In this document: positions 14,537 to 21,587 of the stretch, in pieces
Position numbering within the stretch: the first letter of the stretch is position 1
How the letters are laid out: every line of letters begins with the position of its first letter
Assembly: GCA_963782475.1 (NCBI GenBank)
Contig: CAWAJW010000008.1
Span: 32,671 to 64,670 of the forward strand
Direction: 5' to 3'
DNA: 32,000 nucleotides
Source of the DNA: an uncultured Bacteroidota bacterium
Lineage (GTDB): Bacteria > Bacteroidota > Ignavibacteria > Ignavibacteriales > Ignavibacteriaceae
The notes under the pieces: generated by a model
What the model was told of the DNA's origin: nothing
Databases searched by the model: none
The model's input: only the letters and a program-made list of their open reading frames with translations
Program-made: the position numbers and the translations under genes

Positions 14537-15541
14537 ATGTCAACAATATTTGATATTGCAAAAAAAGCAGAAGTATCAATTATAACTGTTTCAAGGCTGC
14601 TTAATAATCCTAAAATGGTCAGTGCACGCACTGCCGAAAAAATTTTCCGGGTAATGGAAGAATTAAATTACCAGCCAAGCCAAATTGCAAGATCATTAGT
14701 TAAAAAGCAGACCAATACTATCGGCGTTATTATGTCTGATATTAAAAATACTTTTTTTAACAGCTGGTTCCGTATTGTTGAAGATTATGCAAGCAAACAT
14801 GGATATAATTTACTCTTATGCAACACAGACGAAAGTCCCGCAAGAGAAATGAAGTATGTAAAGCTGCTCCAGTCTCAAAGGGTTGATGGCTTAATAATAA
14901 TTCCCTGTTCGGAAAAATCAGTAGACTACTTATTAAAAAGCGGCATAAATTTTATTCTGGTAGATAGAGTTTTAAGAGAGCAAAAAGCCAGCTTTGTTTC
15001 AACTGATCATTATCTTGGTGCTTATGAAGCTGCGGAATACTTAATTAAATTGGGTCATACAAAAATTGCAGTTCTAAAAGGGGGAGGGGCTCTTTTCCCT
15101 GATATTGAAAGATATTCAGGGTTTCAAGATGCTATGAAAAAATATAGTATTGATATAGAAGATAAATATATATTAGATTGTGAATTTGATGAAATGCAGG
15201 GTTATAGTGCAACATTGAAATTGATGGGAATGAATTCAAAACCAACTGCAATTTTTTCTTTCAACAGTAAAATGATGATTGGTTCCATAAGGGCAGTACA
15301 AAAATTGGGACTGACAATTCCCGATAATATTTCATTAATCTGCTTTGATCAAATTCCCGGCTACGAGATCTTTCAGCCGAGGATCACATGTATAACACAG
15401 CCGATAAAATCTTTGGGTGAAAATTCCATTGCAGCTCTAATAGATAAGATAAAAAACAAGGAGAAATCCAAGCGGACTAAAATAATTTTAAAACCCGAAT
15501 TAATTTCAGGGGATTCTTGTAAAAGCTTAATAAAACCATGA
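14537..15541 (+). CDS. LacI-family transcriptional regulator
   Basis: N-terminal HTH MSTIFDIAKKAEVSIITVSRLLNNP. It has a periplasmic-binding-protein-like sugar-binding core (GVIMSDIKNTFF, VDGLIIIP, VLVDR). Confidence 0.9.
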   Translation: MSTIFDIAKKAEVSIITVSRLLNNPKMVSARTAEKIFRVMEELNYQPSQIARSLVKKQTNTIGVIMSDIKNTFFNSWFRIVEDYASKHGYNLLLCNTDESPAREMKYVKLLQSQRVDGLIIIPCSEKSVDYLLKSGINFILVDRVLREQKASFVSTDHYLGAYEAAEYLIKLGHTKIAVLKGGGALFPDIERYSGFQDAMKKYSIDIEDKYILDCEFDEMQGYSATLKLMGMNSKPTAIFSFNSKMMIGSIRAVQKLGLTIPDNISLICFDQIPGYEIFQPRITCITQPIKSLGENSIAALIDKIKNKEKSKRTKIILKPELISGDSCKSLIKP

Positions 15542-15998
15542 AACTATGAGTATAATTATATTCATTATGTTATTTGTGATCCTGCTAAAGCCGATTGCTT
15601 ATTACTTTTATAGACAATCCCGAATTTTGTAAAAAAAATGATAATAGGATATTTTTAAGCTGTTTTTCAGAATATATATTGCTCAAATAGTTTTGTATTC
15701 TAAAATAAAATTACTTAGCTTTACAAAAAGTTTTTAAGGCTTTATGGAAAGTCATTTTTACGATATATCAAAAGAAGCGGCAAATTTTTCTGCTTTTTTT
15801 TATCGGAAATCATGATTAATTTATATTTTCTTTTACCATGATAAAATATACTACTTGAAAGTAGGGTTTAAAAGCCATCATTAAGAAGAGCAGCATTTCG
15901 AATTTTAGGATTCAATTTAAAATAACATTTCATTTTACTTCTTCGGTATATCCACTAAGTATTTTGAATTAATAAAAACAAAAAAAAGGAAAGGTATC

Positions 15999-16349
15999 AT
16001 GAATATTTTCATCGGAAATTTAGCCAAGGATGTTACTGAGGATGATCTGCAAAATTTATTTTCCGAATTTGGAGCCGTAAGGAATGTTAAAGTAATAAAA
16101 GATTTATTTTCAGGTGAATCAAAAGGATTTGGTTTCCTTGAGATGCCGGGATTAGCAGAAGCTCAAAAAGCAATAAGTGAATTAAACACAAGGGATCTAA
16201 AAGGAAAGAAAATAGCTGTAAACGAAGCCAGGCCTCGGAACGATAAAAGAAGACCGGGCGGCGGCGGCGGCGGGGGAAGAGGCGGAAATAGAGGCGGCAG
16301 CGGCGGCGGAAATCGCGGCGGCGGCAGCGGCGGAAGAAGAAGCTGGTAA
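15999..16349 (+). CDS. RRM-domain RNA-binding protein with a Gly/Arg-rich (RGG) tail
   Basis: MNIFIGNLAKDVTEDDL is RNP2 and KGFGFLEM is RNP1. The tail is RRPGGGGGGGRGGNRGGSGGGNRGGGSGGRRSW. There is a strong RBS (AAAGGAAAGG) upstream. Confidence 0.9.
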   Translation: MNIFIGNLAKDVTEDDLQNLFSEFGAVRNVKVIKDLFSGESKGFGFLEMPGLAEAQKAISELNTRDLKGKKIAVNEARPRNDKRRPGGGGGGGRGGNRGGSGGGNRGGGSGGRRSW

Positions 16350-16401
16350 AATTTCTCTTATCTTCTGTTAAAAACCTAAAACTGACTCTTTCTATTGTAA
16401 A

Positions 16402-16527
16402 AGGCTGACCAAAAATAGCACAAACTGCGGGAACAATTCCAGTTACGCTTAATGTATGCTATTAAGAGGAATAAATTGAATATAAAATAAAAGTTAATAT
16501 TTTATAATATTATTTTTTGGTCAGCCT
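16402..16527. other. 126-bp element bounded by a perfect 14-bp inverted repeat with nested hairpins (candidate structured RNA or MITE-like element)
   Basis: AGGCTGACCAAAAA (16402-16415) and TTTTTGGTCAGCCT (16514-16527) are exact reverse complements. Inside, TATAAAATA (16481-16489) pairs with TATTTTATA (16498-16506), and TAGCA (16416-16420) pairs with TGCTA (16457-16461). Confidence 0.4.
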
Positions 16528-16599
16528 CTTCTTTCACCTCTTTAAACTTTTCCCAATACTTTAGAGAAAATATTTTTAAAAATATTATTTATTAAACTC

Positions 16600-16628
16600 T
16601 TGACAAGTGCACATTCGTTCACTATATT
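16600..16628 (+). promoter_or_regulatory. Near-consensus sigma-70 promoter of the lexA operon
   Basis: TTGACA (16600-16605), a 17-nt spacer, then TATATT (16623-16628), about 25 nt upstream of the lexA ATG. Confidence 0.6.
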
Positions 16629-16638
16629 TGTAGTGAAC
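16617..16638. promoter_or_regulatory. Candidate LexA operator (SOS box) overlapping the -10 element
   Basis: GTTCACTA (16617-16624) and TAGTGAAC (16631-16638) are perfect 8-bp inverted arms with a 6-nt spacer, i.e. GTTCAC-N10-GTGAAC. Autoregulation of lexA is the norm. Confidence 0.45.
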
Positions 16639-16652
16639 AATTGAGCACTATA

Positions 16653-17297
16653 ATGAAAAATCAATTAACCGAACGACAGCAGGAAATCCTTTCCTTTATT
16701 TCACAATTCCGCGAAATTAGCGGCTATCCGCCTACTTTAAGAGAAATAGGTAAAAAGTTTGACATATCCTCAACATTTGGTGTAAAAAGACATCTTGATG
16801 CATTGGTAAAAAAAGGTTATTTGACTATAGAAAGTTATGCCAGCAGGGGTATTAGTTTCGTTCATAATATTGTTTCGGAAGGGACTATAAATTACAGCGG
16901 GGAAGATGAATTCAGAAAAATACCGATTGTCGGCAGGGTAGCTGCCGGTTCTCCTATTCTGGCCATTGAGAATATTGAAGGAAGCGTTGTTATAGATAAT
17001 TCTTTTATGAAAAGGTCGGATGACTGCTTTGCCCTGAAAGTTAAAGGTGATAGTATGATCAATGCAGGGATATTTGAAGGAGACCTTGTTATTGTTTCAC
17101 CAAGTAAGGAATCGGTTAATGGGGATACTATTGTAGCACGTCTAAATGATGAAGTTACAGTAAAAACTTTCGAGAAGAAAAAAAATAAAATCAGACTGAT
17201 TCCTGAGAATGATAACTACAAGCCGATTGAAGTAGATGATAAAAAAGAATTTTCAATAATCGGGAAAGTAGTTGGAGTAATCAGGTGGTTTAACTAG
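16653..17297 (+). CDS. lexA: LexA repressor (S24 peptidase family)
   Basis: The N-terminal winged HTH is LTERQQEILSFI...GYPPTLREIGKKF. It has the Ala-Gly cleavage site in GRVAAGSP, the Ser nucleophile in KGDSM and the Lys in EVTVKTF. The ATG at 16653 is preferred over the TTG at 16641. Confidence 0.92.
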   Translation: MKNQLTERQQEILSFISQFREISGYPPTLREIGKKFDISSTFGVKRHLDALVKKGYLTIESYASRGISFVHNIVSEGTINYSGEDEFRKIPIVGRVAAGSPILAIENIEGSVVIDNSFMKRSDDCFALKVKGDSMINAGIFEGDLVIVSPSKESVNGDTIVARLNDEVTVKTFEKKKNKIRLIPENDNYKPIEVDDKKEFSIIGKVVGVIRWFN

Positions 17298-17309
17298 AAA
17301 GAGGTTTAT

Positions 17310-17558
17310 ATGAAATCAGAAATTTTTTCAAGCGCAATTTACAACCGTAATACAATTAAGTTTTTGTATTTATTAAATGAGGTTACAATTGATCCCTATT
17401 TTATTTCTCAGGATAAATCGGGGAAAAAGATTATTTATGGAAAAACATATAACTCAAGTGAGATAAAAAAATTTGAATTTGATAAAATCGTAAATATAAG
17501 AGTGCTGAGAAAAAACAAATTTTCACCGATTATCCCCATCATTGCTCAAATGAACTAA
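17310..17558 (+). CDS. Small stand-alone WYL-like domain protein (82 aa), co-operonic with lexA
   Basis: There is a 12-nt gap after lexA, with the RBS AAGAGG. SSAIYNRNTIKFLYLLNEVTIDPYFISQDKSGKKIIYGKTYNSSEIKKFEFDKIVNIRVLRKNKF follows the WYL-domain pattern (l+F.Y....R.v.P..l....g.WYL.g......+.F+ld+I..v.vL...F), with IIY in place of WYL. Confidence 0.55.
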   Translation: MKSEIFSSAIYNRNTIKFLYLLNEVTIDPYFISQDKSGKKIIYGKTYNSSEIKKFEFDKIVNIRVLRKNKFSPIIPIIAQMN

Positions 17559-17574
17559 AGATGTGAGGTATATA

Positions 17575-18006
17575 ATGATGAACACAGTAAAAAGAAGAAA
17601 TATAGATTTGTTAATAGAAGAATTTTGGAAATTAGGTTATTTAACGGTCAGCCGTAAATTCGGAACTTATCTTCCGGAACCTTCAAAAGTAGGCAAATTT
17701 GAAGTTGATATAGTAGCACGGCAGAGAAAGAATTATGCGATAGGCATTACCTTAAATTTTTCTGATCTCAATGATCCTTCCTTGATAGATAAACTAAATT
17801 ATCTTGCTACAAGGCAAACCAGGTACACAAATAAAAGAGTGATATTATTTGTAGGTATATCTAAAGATTTGTTTAAAAATATGAGAGCTTTAATTGATAC
17901 GTTAAATCCTGAAGTTAAAAATAATATAAAATTATTTGAAATTATTGATAGATCAATTATTCCGAATAGGAGATCATTGAAAAAAGAAAAAGTTCTTTTC
18001 TCATAA
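17575..18006 (+). CDS. Hypothetical protein (143 aa) with a degenerate PD-(D/E)xK/YraN-like motif, third gene of the lexA operon
   Basis: The RBS GAGGT lies 5 nt upstream of the ATG at 17575. GKFEVDIVARQRKNYAIGITL resembles GEIDLIA....lvfVEVK of UPF0102/YraN-type nuclease folds, but the E-x-K is absent. I recognise no other motifs. Confidence 0.5.
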   Translation: MMNTVKRRNIDLLIEEFWKLGYLTVSRKFGTYLPEPSKVGKFEVDIVARQRKNYAIGITLNFSDLNDPSLIDKLNYLATRQTRYTNKRVILFVGISKDLFKNMRALIDTLNPEVKNNIKLFEIIDRSIIPNRRSLKKEKVLFS

Positions 18007-18228
18007 TTATAGGATTATTTAATGGAACAGATTCTCTTATTCAGAGCAGCATTTTTTGCAAATTACGATGATTTTTGATGATTTATTCTAATTTAGAGAT
18101 GAATATCCATCCTTATTAATAGAGTTGCATTTTCTCTATTATTTTTCCTAACTCCGTTTTTACCTTTTATTATAAAATTCCTTCTTGCTATTTTTACACC
18201 GGTATAATTTAAAGAGTATTAACAATTC

Positions 18229-18257
18229 TTGACATTAAATTTACATAAGGGTAATTT
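18229..18257 (+). promoter_or_regulatory. Sigma-70-type promoter candidate upstream of uppS
   Basis: TTGACA (18229-18234), a 17-nt spacer, then TAATTT (18252-18257). Confidence 0.4.
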
Positions 18258-18286
18258 TACATGTTTTATCAATTTTGGAATAGAAT

Positions 18287-19107
18287 TTGGTTAGAGTAGA
18301 AAAAGTATCTGATGAAAAACTTCAAAATGAGCTTAAAAAATCAGGGGAAATTCCTGTTCATATTGCAATAATTATGGATGGTAATGGAAGATGGGCAAGA
18401 AAAAGAGGATTTCCAAGGGTTGCTGGCCATAAAAGGGGGATCGACACAGTAAAAGATATTGTTAAAGCCTGTGTTCAAATCGGGGTGAAATATTTAACTC
18501 TTTATACATTTTCAACGGAGAATTGGAACCGTCCTAAAGATGAAGTTTCAACCCTTATGAGTTTACTTGTAAGAACACTTAGAAAAGAGGTAAATGAATT
18601 AAATGAAAATGATGTTAAATTAAATGCAATAGGAAATGTTGAAGCTCTTCCGTTAGAAGTTCAGAAAGAATTACATGATTCTATTCAAAAGACGAAAAAT
18701 AATAGAAAAATGACATTGAATTTGGCACTAAGCTACAGCGGAAGATGGGAACTTATTAAGGCAATTAAAGAAATTTCTAAGCAAATAGCCGATGGAAATT
18801 TAAAGGTAGATGAGATAAGTGAAGACTGTATTTCGAGTTATTTAGATACTAAAAATATTCCGGATCCGGATTTATTAATCAGAACCAGCGGAGAATTCCG
18901 GGTAAGTAATTTTTTACTTTGGCAGATTGCTTATACCGAATTTTTTATTTCAGATGTTTATTGGCCCGATTTTAAAGGAAAGATCTTTACCAGGCAATCA
19001 AAAATTTTCAGGGCAGAGAAAGAAGGTTTGGAAAGGTTAGTGAACAAATTCAAAAAAATAAAAAAGGTTTAAAGAATGTTTCAGACCTCTCTCAAGAGAC
19101 GATATAA
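18287..19107 (+). CDS. uppS: Undecaprenyl-diphosphate synthase. There is a frame break near 18971-18978 (the ORF as given is 18287-19072).
   Basis: Motifs seen: HIAIIMDGNGRWA, GH..G, LTLYTFSTENW.RP..EV, LIRTSGE.R.SNFLLWQ.AYTEF and WPDF. After WPDF another frame reads KDLYQAIKNFQGRERRFGKV, the conserved UppS C-terminus, and ends at 19105-19107. The start is an apparent TTG. Confidence 0.88.
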
Positions 19108-21587
19108 AATTTTTATCCCCCTTTTAGTCTTTATTTTTTATTCTGTTGTTTTTTCTCAGGTAAATACTCCTGTTACCTATAAAATACTCGGAATTTCTGT
19201 TGAGGGGAATAAAACTGCGGATGTTAATACAATAATTGTTAACAGCGGGTTAAAAATTGGAGATGAAATTCAAATCCCCGGTGATCAAACTTTAAATGCA
19301 ATTAAAAATCTATGGAACCTGAATATATTTTCGGATATCCAGATTTTAGAGGATAAAAAAGTTGGGGACGGTATCTTCCTGACAATAAAAGTTACAGAAT
19401 ACCCGCGTATCGAGAAAACAGTTATTGAGGGAAATGATGAGTTGAGTACAAGCGATATTGAAGAAAAAATCCATTTTGGCAGGGGACAAATTCTTACGCC
19501 TGAAGAAGTAAACAATTTGAAATTAAAAATAATAAAAATGTATGAGGATGACGGCTATTTAAATGCAGTCGTTACTCCTGAATATTTTGTTTACTTTACC
19601 GCCGATACTTCTGAAGATAAAGTAACAGTTACATGGAGAAATGAAAAAGATTTGGCGGATGAATACAAACTTGATTATGAAAAGGATGAAGTTTCTTCTT
19701 ATAATCTGATTCCTAAAATTAAAGACCGTATTCTCCTTAAAATAGAAATAAAGGAAAATGAGAGGGTTACAGTTAGGCATATTGAATTTGAAGGTAATAA
19801 GGCTTTTGATGATGGCGACCTTAAAGGGGCAATGGACGAGATTTCCGAAGCTAAATGGTGGAAATTCTGGAACAGCGCTAAATTTGATAGTAAGAAATTC
19901 GAAAAAGATAAAAAATCAATTAAGGATTTTTATCTTAAGAATGGATACAGGGATGCAGAAATTATTTCTGATTCTTTGATTTATTCCAATAATAAACAAG
20001 ATTTAACGATTTTGATTAAAGTTTATGAAGGTCCCCAGTATAAAGTTAGAAATATTGTTTGGGAAGGGAATACTATTTACCCGGATGCCTTTCTTACCGA
20101 AAGATTAGATTTTAAGAAGGGTGATATATTCAATTATGAAAAATTTGAACAAAATTTAAGAGGAAATGAAGATCAAACAGATGTTACTTCATTATATCTC
20201 GATAACGGATATTTAACTTTTAATTTAGATGAATCAGAATCAAAAGTAGGAAAAGATTCAATTGATATTGATATTAAAATTGATGAAAAAAATCAATTTA
20301 AAATTGGCCGGGTAGATATTTCAGGTAATGATAAAACAAAAGATAAAGTAATACGTCGTGAGCTTTACTCGATACCAGGAGATTATTTTAATCGTGCACT
20401 TTTAATTCGAAGTATTCAGCAATTGGCAAACCTGAAATATTTTAATGTTGAGAAGCTTTATGGCGCCGATGCTGTAAATTATAAATTATCAAATGACAGT
20501 ACAGTAAATGTTTCTTTTAGTGTTGAAGAAAAATCAAGTGATTACTTGAATGCTTCGGTCGGCTACAGCGGTTCTTTCGGTTTTAGCGGAGCTGTTGGTA
20601 TTACTCTTACTAATTTTGCGCTTGATAAGCCTTTCTCTCTTGGGGGAGGTCAGATATTAAGTTTTAACTGGCAGTTTGGTGTAGGGAGTATTTACAGAAC
20701 TTTTACTTTAGGTTTTACTGAACCATGGTTATTTGACACACCTACACTTTTAGGCTTCGAAGTATTCGATACCCGTGAACAATATATTTACGATTTACGC
20801 CAATCCGGCGGAACAGTAAGGCTTGGAAGAAGGTTAAAATGGCCTGATGATTTCTTTGATGTTCAGGGTTTTTTCAGGTATCAATATAATAATGTTTTAA
20901 ATGGTCAAGGTTATTATCCTGTAGGTATCAGTCATCAATATACAATTGGTGCAACAATTTCAAGAAAAGATATAGACAACCCTATTTTCCCTTCCAAAGG
21001 ATCTAACCTTACAATTAGCGGTGAATTGTCAGGCGGTCCGTTTCTGCCCGGCGATGTAGATTATTACAAATTAGGTTTAACAACCGAATGGTACAAGAGG
21101 CTTATTTAATTCAAATAGAATTGCTCTTTATACAATTGCAAATTTAGGATATCTGCAGGAATTGAATGAAGCTACTAAATTGAAAATAAATCCCTTTGAT
21201 AAATTTTATATGGGCGGCAACGGTCTTGTAATTGCAACAGAACCTCTGCGCGGCTACGATGATAGAACGATTGGACCGCAAAATAGTGCAGGGCAGGTTA
21301 TTGGCGGAAGGGTTATGGAAAGGTATACTGCGGAATTAAGATTTGCTGTTACATTAGAACCGATGCCTCTTTACCTTCTTGCTTTTGCCGAGGCAGGCAA
21401 TGTCTTTGAAAGCTTCGATAAAACTGATATTTTTAACCTTAGAAGATCTGCCGGTTTTGGCGCAAGGATTTTAATTAACCCGATTGGTCTTATTGGTTTC
21501 GATCTTGGGTATGGTTTTGATAGAAAAGCAGTTGACGGGCATGATCCTTCATGGCTTTTCCATTTTCAATTTGGTAAGGGATTTTAA
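19076..21587 (+). CDS. bamA: Outer-membrane protein assembly factor BamA (Omp85). There is a frame break near 21101-21107 (fragments 19076-21109 and 21162-21587).
   Basis: It has a signal peptide, POTRA-like repeats (I..I.VEGN, V..I.FEGN, V..I.WEGN, I..V.ISGN) and a C-terminal beta-barrel ending in HFQFGKGF. Frame 2 continues ...KRL|FNSNRIALYTIANLGYLQELNEATKL across the break. Confidence 0.88.

Follow-up and report, generated by a model that had tools for sequence, protein, structure and literature searches.

The window analyzed here, a 32,000-nt stretch of DNA from an uncultured member of the Ignavibacteriaceae, contains a lexA operon that is specific to Ignavibacteria and predicted, from operator-like boxes at its promoter, to be autoregulated. 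Downstream of lexA, the operon encodes two small proteins, one that is apparently a WYL domain standing alone (gene 2) and one with a nuclease-like fold whose active site appears to have been lost (gene 3). Our leading reading, to which we give a little less than an even chance, is that the two proteins form a LexA-controlled, non-catalytic accessory pair that binds ssDNA or another nucleic acid without cutting it. The features of the locus are as follows.

16600..16628, forward strand: sigma-70-type operon promoter, with -35 TTGACA at 16600-16605, a 17-nt spacer, and -10 TATATT at 16623-16628
16607..16622, no strand assigned: putative LexA box 1, GTGCACATTCGTTCAC, filling the promoter spacer
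16633..16648, no strand assigned: putative LexA box 2, GTGAACAATTGAGCAC, just 3' of the -10 and covering the expected transcription start
16653..17297, forward strand: lexA, 214 aa, with ATG at 16653 and stop at 17295-17297
17300-17304: gene 2 ribosome-binding site, AGAGG, 5 nt 5' of the gene 2 ATG
17310..17558, forward strand: gene 2, 82 aa, pI 9.8, a predicted stand-alone WYL (Sm-like beta-barrel) domain with a conserved FSPIIPI tail
17565-17568: gene 3 ribosome-binding site, GAGG, 6 nt 5' of the gene 3 ATG
17575..18006, forward strand: gene 3, 143 aa, pI 10.1, from an unannotated family with a predicted restriction-endonuclease-like (PD-(D/E)xK) core without E-x-K

The gaps between the genes are 12 nt (lexA to gene 2) and 16 nt (gene 2 to gene 3). 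These spacings were reproduced from an earlier note on this DNA, as were its coordinates, gene lengths, and Shine-Dalgarno sequences; the gene 2 peptide that it quoted is identical in the 82-aa translation, and the GKFEVDIVARQ that it singled out in gene 3 lies at residues 40-50. Alternative upstream starts appear in the list of open reading frames, a TTG at 16641 and a GTG at 17563; we prefer the ATG starts at 16653 and 17575 because of the homologues and the positions of the ribosome-binding sites. An Rfam scan of 15400-18500 returned only a sub-threshold chance match.

The promoter is near-consensus (a score of 11/12), is the sole strong match within 16300-18400, and keeps the same -35 and -10 hexamers in nearly every related locus; the region scanned around the operon has no internal promoter or terminator scoring above chance. 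Both boxes are palindromes of the GTGAAC-N4-GTTCAC type that overlap the promoter, and together they form an inverted repeat with 19-nt arms. Box 1, with two mismatches to GTGAACANNTGTTCAC, is kept in related loci, and two boxes are present in 67 of the 76 related upstream regions, 26 bp apart in 61 of those. We infer that the boxes are LexA sites, with LexA predicted to bind them. The lexA product matches TIGR00498 (E 3.4e-64, 216 bits against a cut-off of 111) and contains the domains PF01726 (LexA_DNA_bind, E 9e-20) and PF00717 (Peptidase_S24, E 1.5e-38). It is a LexA of the canonical, self-cleaving type, for which cleavage is predicted: the translation has an intact cleavage site (VAAG, with A98-G99) and an intact catalytic dyad, Ser134 (GDSM) and Lys171 (TVK).

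Gene 2 consists, as far as sequence and a structural model can tell, solely of a WYL domain. Its AlphaFold2 (AF2) model (pLDDT 88) consists of a helix (H2-12) followed by five strands, and the top 24 Foldseek matches in the PDB are the WYL domains of PafBC, BrxR, DriD, and CapW (TMq 0.65-0.77, rmsd 1.2-4.1 Å), clearly ahead of the Hfq and Sm proteins found among the lower matches at TMq of about 0.6. At the level of sequence the window copy has no WYL match above threshold in Pfam; weak matches to PF13280 occur in 18 of 39 relatives (best E 2.6e-4), PF13280 is also among the precomputed assignments of a few cluster representatives, and the window copy itself matches the PADLOC WYL model at E 1.1e-3, with an equally weak match to AbiEii (E 1.1e-3) over the same residues. 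The fold, its best matches, and these weak Pfam and PADLOC matches bear out the earlier description of gene 2 as a naked WYL-type domain. The chain is composed of the barrel and a 12-residue tail, lacking both an HTH and a WCX domain, and its family, 814 clusters in all, stays at about 80-90 aa (78-97 aa among the 120 relatives listed). In the family alignment A1, Y43, R13, and K40 are invariant, as is the FSPIIPI of the tail, conservation of K53 reaches at least 90%, and position 59 holds either K or R. As we read the alignment, Y43 would sit at the position of the WYL-motif tyrosine on beta3, and K53-x-F55-x-x-D58-K/R59-I60 would parallel the RxFRxDRI stretch, a mapping made by comparing A1 with descriptions of PafBC and DriD and not by structural superposition.

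For gene 3, there is moderate evidence of a restriction-endonuclease-like fold. The AF2 model (pLDDT 73) has the element order alpha-beta-beta-beta-alpha-beta, which, along with an Asp starting beta2, gene 3 would share with XisH (2okf), MmcB-like repair proteins, the Mrr catalytic domain, and Holliday-junction resolvases. Fold searches returned weak and consistent matches to XisH, Bax1, R2-RLE, Can2, NucS, MmcB-like proteins, and Mrr, with TM scores of 0.3-0.56 overall (in the PDB, E of at least 0.026 and TM up to 0.46; in BFVD, E of at least 1.4e-3 and TM up to 0.56). The most distant relative (P0331) keeps PD...EAK and aligns with gene 3 at an hhalign probability of 94.6%, whereas gene 3 has I58-T59-L60 in place of E-x-K; gene 3 would therefore be an inactivated PD-(D/E)xK protein. 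D45 is kept in close relatives and is Ala in the divergent P0292 and P0296. Unlike other small PD-(D/E)xK proteins, gene 3 lacks E-x-K, with even the Asp missing from divergent members, and has no match to a Pfam or PDB nuclease profile. The conserved features of gene 3 are an RKxGxYLPxP loop and a basic, LFS-terminated tail; the most conserved loop (residues 25-35) is modeled at a pLDDT below 50, and the C-terminal motif, which follows a basic linker modeled at a pLDDT of about 53, is lost in divergent members.

The family of gene 3 is small, with 52 clusters among 1.84 billion representatives, and searches with gene 3 and its divergent relatives against Pfam, NCBIfam, and PHROGs matched no family. 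Sequence-profile searches of the gene 2 and gene 3 families against PDB chains likewise gave nothing meaningful, and the Pfam and NCBIfam searches placed neither small protein in a well-characterized family, in keeping with the proposal of the earlier note. That note had also likened the core of gene 3 to PD-(D/E)xK nucleases and YraN. The first likeness is supported, since the AF2 model, the fold matches, and P0331 all point to a nuclease-like fold without E-x-K. The second is not: YraN/UPF0102 proteins share with gene 3 a G-x-(E/D)-(I/V)-D-(L/I)-(I/V)-A layout after an N-terminal helix, but they keep E-x-K, no gene 3 family member matches PF02021, and hhalign of gene 3 (A2) against E. coli YraN gives 0.3%.

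The three genes have stayed together across the class. The order lexA-gene 2-gene 3 is found in all 80 species genomes and in further divergent loci, and the same order with tight spacing holds at 85 of 85 related loci examined, including lineages in which gene 3 is only 27% identical (synteny persists down to 27-30% gene 3 identity). Across these 85 loci, the gaps are 9-22 nt between lexA and gene 2 and 6-20 nt between gene 2 and gene 3, with GGAG-type ribosome-binding sites. Counted over chromosomal loci, gene 3 is tied to lexA and gene 2 in 85 of 85 examined, with gaps mostly of 6-22 nt and up to 45 nt; the exceptions among the loci seen are one contig with an orphan gene (L086-L088) and one 631-bp fragment. 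The proposal of one operon controlled by LexA boxes, in an arrangement conserved across Ignavibacteria, is thus upheld, with LexA control predicted, and the two genes are not missing beside lexA in close relatives. The downstream uppS-bamA is likewise syntenic, so part of the conserved gene order reflects general colinearity. That the chromosomal context stays fixed throughout the class is consistent with vertical inheritance, and scans for relatives of gene 2 and of gene 3 found none in viral contigs. The contig of one outlier homologue (P0311) has neighbors without a PHROG match.

Gene 2 and gene 3 are both under purifying selection. Differences from close relatives pile up at third codon positions (8/3/31 for gene 2 and 13/12/51 for gene 3), and the evolutionary rates of the two genes are about as low as that of lexA. 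Each protein has a basic pI of about 10, a character that holds across their families. In a mirror-tree analysis, gene 2 and gene 3 show no co-variation in excess of the uppS controls (partial r 0.15 against 0.13-0.43 for the controls). An apparent natural fusion of the two (P0285, 237 aa) arose because the gene caller ignored an in-frame stop between its parts; the locus is an ordinary lexA-gene 2-gene 3 arrangement and provides no Rosetta-stone evidence.

Several known systems resemble parts of this operon. Operons of lexA with accessory genes include lexA-sulA in Pseudomonas and lexA-dinF in E. coli. Another is the co-transcribed lexA-imuA-imuB-dnaE2 (PMC3765255). As in all three, an autoregulated lexA comes first in the window operon and is followed by further SOS genes, the regulation here being predicted; in contrast, neither a WYL-only protein nor a dead nuclease is known as a passenger in those operons. 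PafBC of Actinobacteria and DriD of Caulobacter share with gene 2 the Sm-like barrel of the WYL domain, with the putative motif tyrosine and basic residues conserved, and a link to DNA damage, which for gene 2 comes from its place in a lexA operon; ssDNA is an established WYL ligand in these proteins, and that of the DriD WYL domain (PMC9186387). Whereas PafBC and DriD are LexA-independent transcription activators with an HTH-WYL-WCX architecture and a length of at least about 320 aa, gene 2 is 82 aa long, has no HTH or WCX, and is encoded within the lexA operon. A further comparison is the YolD family (PF08863; YqjX, YolD, and YozL of Bacillus), small stand-alone WYL/SH3-barrel proteins in LexA-regulated operons, as the window operon is predicted to be. 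YolD proteins are paired with Y-family polymerases and have been proposed as UmuD' analogues, whereas gene 2 comes from a different phylum, has lexA and a dead nuclease fold as its partners, and belongs to a family in which 39 members gave no PF08863 match, even at E <= 10. YolD and DUF2693 are both stand-alone WYL-superfamily members encoded in SOS operons, and WYL domains fused to Mrr-like restriction-endonuclease domains have been described (PMC4012209, PMC6511836), so the earlier view that the arrangement is without precedent was too strong. In the fusions, both domains lie in one protein (PMC4012209), whereas here the WYL and nuclease-like parts are separate genes. Our literature search found no report of a lexA-WYL-nuclease-like three-gene arrangement and no paper linking lexA with operon content in Ignavibacteria.

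How might the pair act? In the reading we favor, RecA-stimulated cleavage of LexA would lift repression, and LexA and the gene 2 and gene 3 proteins would rise together. The WYL protein would bind a negatively charged nucleic acid, most likely ssDNA as in DriD, PafBC, and CapW, and the dead-nuclease protein would bind DNA or a partner without cleavage. The pair would then be a non-enzymatic SOS accessory at damaged or single-stranded DNA that marks or shields it or tunes the RecA/LexA signal, and would be neither a repair enzyme nor a toxin nor a transcription factor of the HTH-WYL type. This reading draws on the shared promoter with its boxes, the synteny over 85 loci, the WYL and dead-nuclease folds, the basic charge, the purifying selection, the lack of relatives in the viral contigs scanned, and the precedent of YolD for small WYL-superfamily proteins in SOS operons. 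Because DriD holds ssDNA between its WYL domain, linker, and WCX domain (PMC9186387), a bare WYL domain may bind ssDNA only weakly, or may have another ligand such as RNA or, on the model put forward for YolD, a peptide tail.

Among the other readings, an unlikely one has the pair regulate LexA itself: the WYL protein would sense ssDNA or another damage signal and, with the dead nuclease, alter autocleavage, operator binding, or re-repression. The operon would then amount to a split version of an HTH / WYL / C-terminal-domain regulator, with LexA supplying the DNA-binding domain. More than 90% of WYL proteins have an HTH ahead of the domain within one polypeptide (PMC6789036), and the only HTH in this operon is that of LexA; moreover, the three genes are predicted to be co-transcribed, so similar protein amounts are probable, and the gene 3-LexA partial correlation in the mirror-tree analysis (0.37) is above that of gene 2 with gene 3, though within the control range. 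However, a canonical LexA with intact cleavage site and dyad by precedent needs no extra factor, gene 3 is unlike WCX, and no PafBC, DriD, or BrxR chain is among its fold matches. We consider quite unlikely the specific form in which the WYL-only protein and its dead-nuclease partner would be an ssDNA sensor acting directly on LexA, promoting or restraining its self-cleavage or its binding to the operator, either in addition to RecA or as a substitute for it.

Similarly slim is the chance that gene 2 is an adaptor like YolD or UmuD', its barrel docking a translesion polymerase or a peptide tail such as the basic, LFS-ending tail of gene 3, and assembling a damage-tolerance complex rather than sensing ssDNA. 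A conserved C-terminal motif after a low-confidence basic linker in gene 3 and the invariant FSPIIPI tail that gene 2 itself carries would suit such docking, but the gene 3 motif is not kept in divergent members, the best fold matches of gene 2 are canonical WYL domains, no A1 member matches Pfam YolD at E <= 10, and neither the window nor the checked loci showed a Y-family polymerase gene close to the operon.

Genes beside or co-transcribed with lexA are often division inhibitors (sulA in Pseudomonas, yneA in Bacillus), and gene 2 and gene 3 are small and adjoining, which would suit a pair that arrests the cell during damage, as an SOS-induced checkpoint on growth or division or in the manner of a toxin/antitoxin system. 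We find this improbable. Neither protein resembles SulA or has a hydrophobic segment of membrane-spanning length, and the nuclease active site is lost, so the obvious toxic activity is missing. Among the PADLOC toxin, antitoxin, and defense models, the only matches were the weak ones of gene 2 to WYL and AbiEii and of gene 3 to the candidate defense model PDC-S11 (E 4.9e-3), the last of which lends this reading some support. Co-expression with an autoregulated LexA implies basal expression, and the fixed class-wide context, slow, LexA-like evolution, and lack of viral-contig relatives are unlike the patchy, mobile distribution of toxin/antitoxin or defense genes; together the evidence argues mildly against a toxin/antitoxin pair. 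Very unlikely, finally, is a general nucleoid- or RNA-associated housekeeping role, as an Hfq/Sm-like barrel and partner merely sharing the lexA transcript: Hfq and Sm proteins do appear lower in the gene 2 fold search, WYL domains can bind RNA (WYL1, PMC6547453; DriD more weakly, PMC9186387), and the operon sits in the housekeeping region uppS-bamA-skp-lpxD, but WYL domains outrank Hfq, and every chromosomal locus examined has gene 3 together with lexA and gene 2.

WYL domains have so far been known as the ssDNA-sensing part of the LexA-independent PafBC and DriD and of regulators of phage defense. Here, the lexA operon of an entire bacterial class appears to have a bare WYL domain built into it, alongside a partner whose family is annotated nowhere. 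Whatever the role of the pair, gene 3 would define a new family of inactivated PD-(D/E)xK proteins, and the GTGAAC-N4-GTTCAC boxes offer a motif from which mapping of the Ignavibacteria SOS regulon could start. If the pair binds nothing relevant, it is merely a lineage-specific pair of small proteins. If the WYL protein and its partner were an ssDNA sensor acting on LexA, Ignavibacteria would merge two paradigms of damage sensing, RecA/LexA and the WYL activators, that have so far been regarded as separate. More generally, a pair that binds ssDNA or LexA would add a new accessory layer to the SOS response and offer a minimal, tractable system for studying how WYL domains act without an HTH.

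A single strong promoter precedes three co-directional genes, lexA and two small genes that we call g2 and g3, which are packed with gaps of 12 and 16 nt, as the earlier note had described. The features of the operon, in window coordinates, are:

16600-16628, forward strand: promoter, TTGACA-17-TATATT, scoring 11 of 12
16607-16622: box 1, a palindrome that fills the promoter spacer
16633-16648: box 2, a palindrome just 3' of the -10 hexamer
16653-17297, forward strand: lexA, open reading frame with TIGR00498, LexA DNA-binding, and S24 peptidase domains
17310-17558, forward strand: g2, open reading frame of 82 aa with AGAGG before the start codon
17575-18006, forward strand: g3, open reading frame of 143 aa with GAGG before the start codon

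By all sequence criteria the first gene is lexA: its product exceeds the cut-off of TIGR00498 in the profile search (E 3e-64), and its translation contains A98-G99, Ser134, and Lys171. TTGACA-17-TATATT is the sole strong promoter match of the lexA region, and in the operon neither terminators nor internal promoters rose above shuffled background. A pair of 16-bp palindromes, both imperfect and of the GTGAAC-N4-GTTCAC type, lie either side of the -10 hexamer and jointly form an inverted repeat with 19-nt arms; the GAAC-N4-GTTC core of both resembles the Gram-positive LexA box. Given a -10 hexamer at 16623-16628, the lexA leader would be only ~17 nt long and filled by box 2 (window 16635-16655); it lacks a Shine-Dalgarno sequence, unlike g2 and g3, each of which has its own. 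Some relatives have a longer lexA leader (e.g., loci L009 and L017-L020).

Upstream, a perfect 14-nt inverted repeat (AGGCTGACCAAAAA / TTTTTGGTCAGCCT, window 16402-16415 and 16514-16527) encloses an AT-rich stretch of ~98 nt and sits between the gene of an RRM-type RNA-binding protein (15999-16349) and the lexA promoter. Downstream, the 280-nt gap before uppS and a promoter-like site in it (TTGACA-17-TAATTT, 18229-18260, ~30 nt 5' of uppS) suggest that uppS-bamA has a transcript of its own, apart from that of the lexA operon. A search for intrinsic terminators 3' of g3 detected none. bamA, a single open reading frame of ~827 aa in relatives, is split here into two (window 19076-21109 and 21162-21587), with its Omp85 domain interrupted (profile positions 3-168 in the first and 191-325 in the second), probably through a frameshift by assembly error near 21100-21110 or because it is a pseudogene.

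The three-gene arrangement is conserved across Ignavibacteria, a check that the earlier note had proposed, and judged from these sequences its conservation exceeds chance. With one genome scanned per species, 190 species encode a g3 relative, and all 80 loci kept have lexA, g2, and g3 in this order on the same strand (tblastn). Among 85 loci, lexA and g2 are mostly separated by 9-22 nt, and g2 and g3 mostly by 6-20 nt, with GGAG-type ribosome-binding sites ahead of both small genes. In relatives the promoter hexamers are conserved, as are both boxes, whereas DNA farther upstream is not; two boxes occur in 67 of 76 upstream regions and are 26 bp apart in 61 of these 67. The arrangement is kept even where g3 has diverged to 27-30% identity with the window copy, and one lineage at that distance (L083-L085) retains the same promoter, boxes, and downstream uppS-bamA-skp-skp-lpxD. 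Substitutions relative to close relatives fall mostly in third codon positions (8/3/31 by position in g2, 13/12/51 in g3), and mean pairwise protein divergence (0.36 for g2 and 0.43 for g3) is close to that of LexA (0.32); g2 and g3 are therefore real genes under purifying selection. A mirror-tree analysis of g2/g3 co-evolution gave no signal.

The assignment of g2 to the WYL domain, as an essentially naked copy, is strongly supported by its predicted fold and by weak but consistent profile matches. The g2 family is large, with 814 clusters when grouped at 90% identity, and each of the 120 members listed is 78-97 aa long. The AlphaFold model (39 sequences, pLDDT 88) predicts an N-terminal helix and, after it, a barrel of five strands, and its best 24 matches in the PDB are all WYL domains of PafBC, BrxR, DriD, and CapW (TMq 0.65-0.77, rmsd 1.2-4.1 Å), with Hfq and Sm proteins ranking below. 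The window copy has no match in Pfam or NCBIfam; Pfam WYL is matched weakly by 18 of 39 family members (best E 2.6e-4), the window protein weakly matches the PADLOC WYL model (E 1.1e-3), and one relative carries the NCBI name WYL domain-containing protein. Tyr43, invariant in the family, lies in beta3, as does the WYL motif tyrosine of PafBC (PMC6789036), and in DriD that tyrosine touches an ssDNA phosphate (PMC9186387). The stretch K53-K-F55-E-F-D58-K/R59-I60 appears to parallel the basic/aromatic stretch after the motif tyrosine, a mapping read from the alignment and not from superposition. Apart from the domain, g2 has only a 12-residue tail with an invariant F-S-P-I-I-P motif, and the protein is basic (pI 9.8).

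The evidence that g3 is a dead nuclease fold is of moderate strength. Its family is small and compact: when 1.84 billion cluster representatives were searched exhaustively by profile, only 52 clusters came up. Pfam gave no match for the window copy and 10 divergent relatives, NCBIfam none for the window copy, g3 profiles nothing among PDB sequences, and PHROGs only insignificant matches for three members tested (E ≥ 0.2). The AlphaFold model is moderate (pLDDT 73) and runs alpha1, weak beta1, beta2, beta3, alpha2, beta4 and on, the order of the restriction-endonuclease core. Fold searches returned no strong match, although that superfamily dominated the lists: XisH, Bax1, the R2 endonuclease domain, Can2, NucS, McrC, and SfsA in the PDB (E ≥ 0.026, TM up to 0.46), and MmcB-like repair proteins, Mrr, Holliday-junction resolvases, and endonuclease-like proteins among viral models (E ≥ 1.4e-3, TM up to 0.56). 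The strongest argument is internal to the family: P0331, its farthest member, can be aligned to the g3 profile (hhalign probability 94.6%, E 6.5e-8) and reads EPDIIA ... LLIGEAKT, a textbook PD...ExK, where g3 has EVDIVA ... YAIGITLN; because Ile58 and Leu60 replace the catalytic Glu and Lys, the most fitting description of g3 is an inactivated PD-(D/E)xK protein, which bears out the nuclease-like core without E-x-K seen at first. The proposed resemblance to YraN does not amount to membership (hhalign probability 0.3%). In some divergent members the Asp of the PD motif is also replaced, by Ala. The most conserved feature family-wide is the loop R27-K-x-G-x-Y32-L33-P-x-P36, modeled at low confidence, as expected of a segment that may order on a partner. 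g3 is basic (pI 10.1), and in lexA-linked Ignavibacteriaceae members its C-terminus is a basic linker followed by a near-invariant L-F-S.

P0331 (L082:112-492, 126 aa, on a 631-bp contig), with its intact PD...EAK, may be an active, ancestor-like form of the family. P0285 (L081:161-874, 237 aa) was rejected as a g2-g3 fusion since an in-frame stop between the parts was translated as Trp by the gene caller, a caution for Rosetta-stone arguments from metagenome gene calls. P0311 (L086:5001-5396; also L087 and L088), 25% identical to g3, is accompanied by neither lexA nor g2 and belongs to an 83-kb contig whose genes are small orphans on the same strand. Within the 10 kb inspected around P0311 there are ~28 such genes, none with a Pfam match and 0 of 10 tested with a PHROG match, and this stretch ends beside rtcB. 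This contig may be a phage or other mobile element.

The conserved unit thus encodes LexA of the canonical type, a WYL domain on its own, and a catalytically disabled nuclease-fold protein, with operator-like palindromes on its promoter. We tentatively favor, at somewhat less than even confidence, a LexA-controlled, non-enzymatic accessory pair that binds ssDNA or other nucleic acid in the SOS response. LexA would repress lexA-g2-g3 through the two boxes, and upon DNA damage RecA-stimulated LexA cleavage would lead to LexA, g2, and g3 being made together. g2 would bind ssDNA, the ligand of the DriD WYL domain (PMC9186387) and likewise given for PafBC and CapW, while g3 would bind, but not cut, DNA or would bind a partner; the pair would act where DNA is damaged or on RecA/LexA signaling. 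It is unlikely that they instead modulate LexA directly as a split HTH/WYL/C-domain regulator. Less likely again is a YolD/UmuD'-like adaptor docking a peptide tail: YolD homologues, small stand-alone WYL-superfamily proteins of Bacillus SOS operons, are LexA-regulated, as g2 putatively is, and are proposed UmuD' analogues that bind their polymerase at its C-terminal tail (PMC6511836), but g2 does not match the YolD profile. A checkpoint or toxin/antitoxin pair is improbable, being disfavored by the chromosomal context fixed across the class, the absence of g2/g3 relatives from viral contigs, and the lost active site of g3. Least probable of all, we would put housekeeping nucleic-acid-binding passengers.

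Profile and structure searches placed neither small protein in an unrelated well-characterized family. An HTH precedes the WYL domain in >90% of WYL proteins (PMC6789036), making the 82-aa g2 a minority architecture. Since g2, as domain plus tail, shares neither the YolD profile nor the HTH-WYL-WCX layout and g3 lacks the catalytic residues of PD-(D/E)xK nucleases, the module is not placed in any described system. The claim that such an operon is undescribed stands insofar as the literature searched yielded neither a lexA operon with such a make-up nor any account of LexA in Ignavibacteria; it is tempered by YolD and DUF2693, stand-alone WYL-superfamily members of SOS operons, and by catalogued proteins in which WYL is fused to an Mrr-like restriction-endonuclease domain (PMC4012209), which join in one chain the partners that are separate here. 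We file lexA-g2-g3 as a putative SOS operon whose small accessory proteins pair a WYL sensor with a nuclease-fold partner. Although lineage-restricted, partly foreshadowed by YolD, and with a mechanism that is proposed only, the module is class-wide, cleanly defined, and experimentally approachable, and it embeds a WYL domain in the circuit of LexA.
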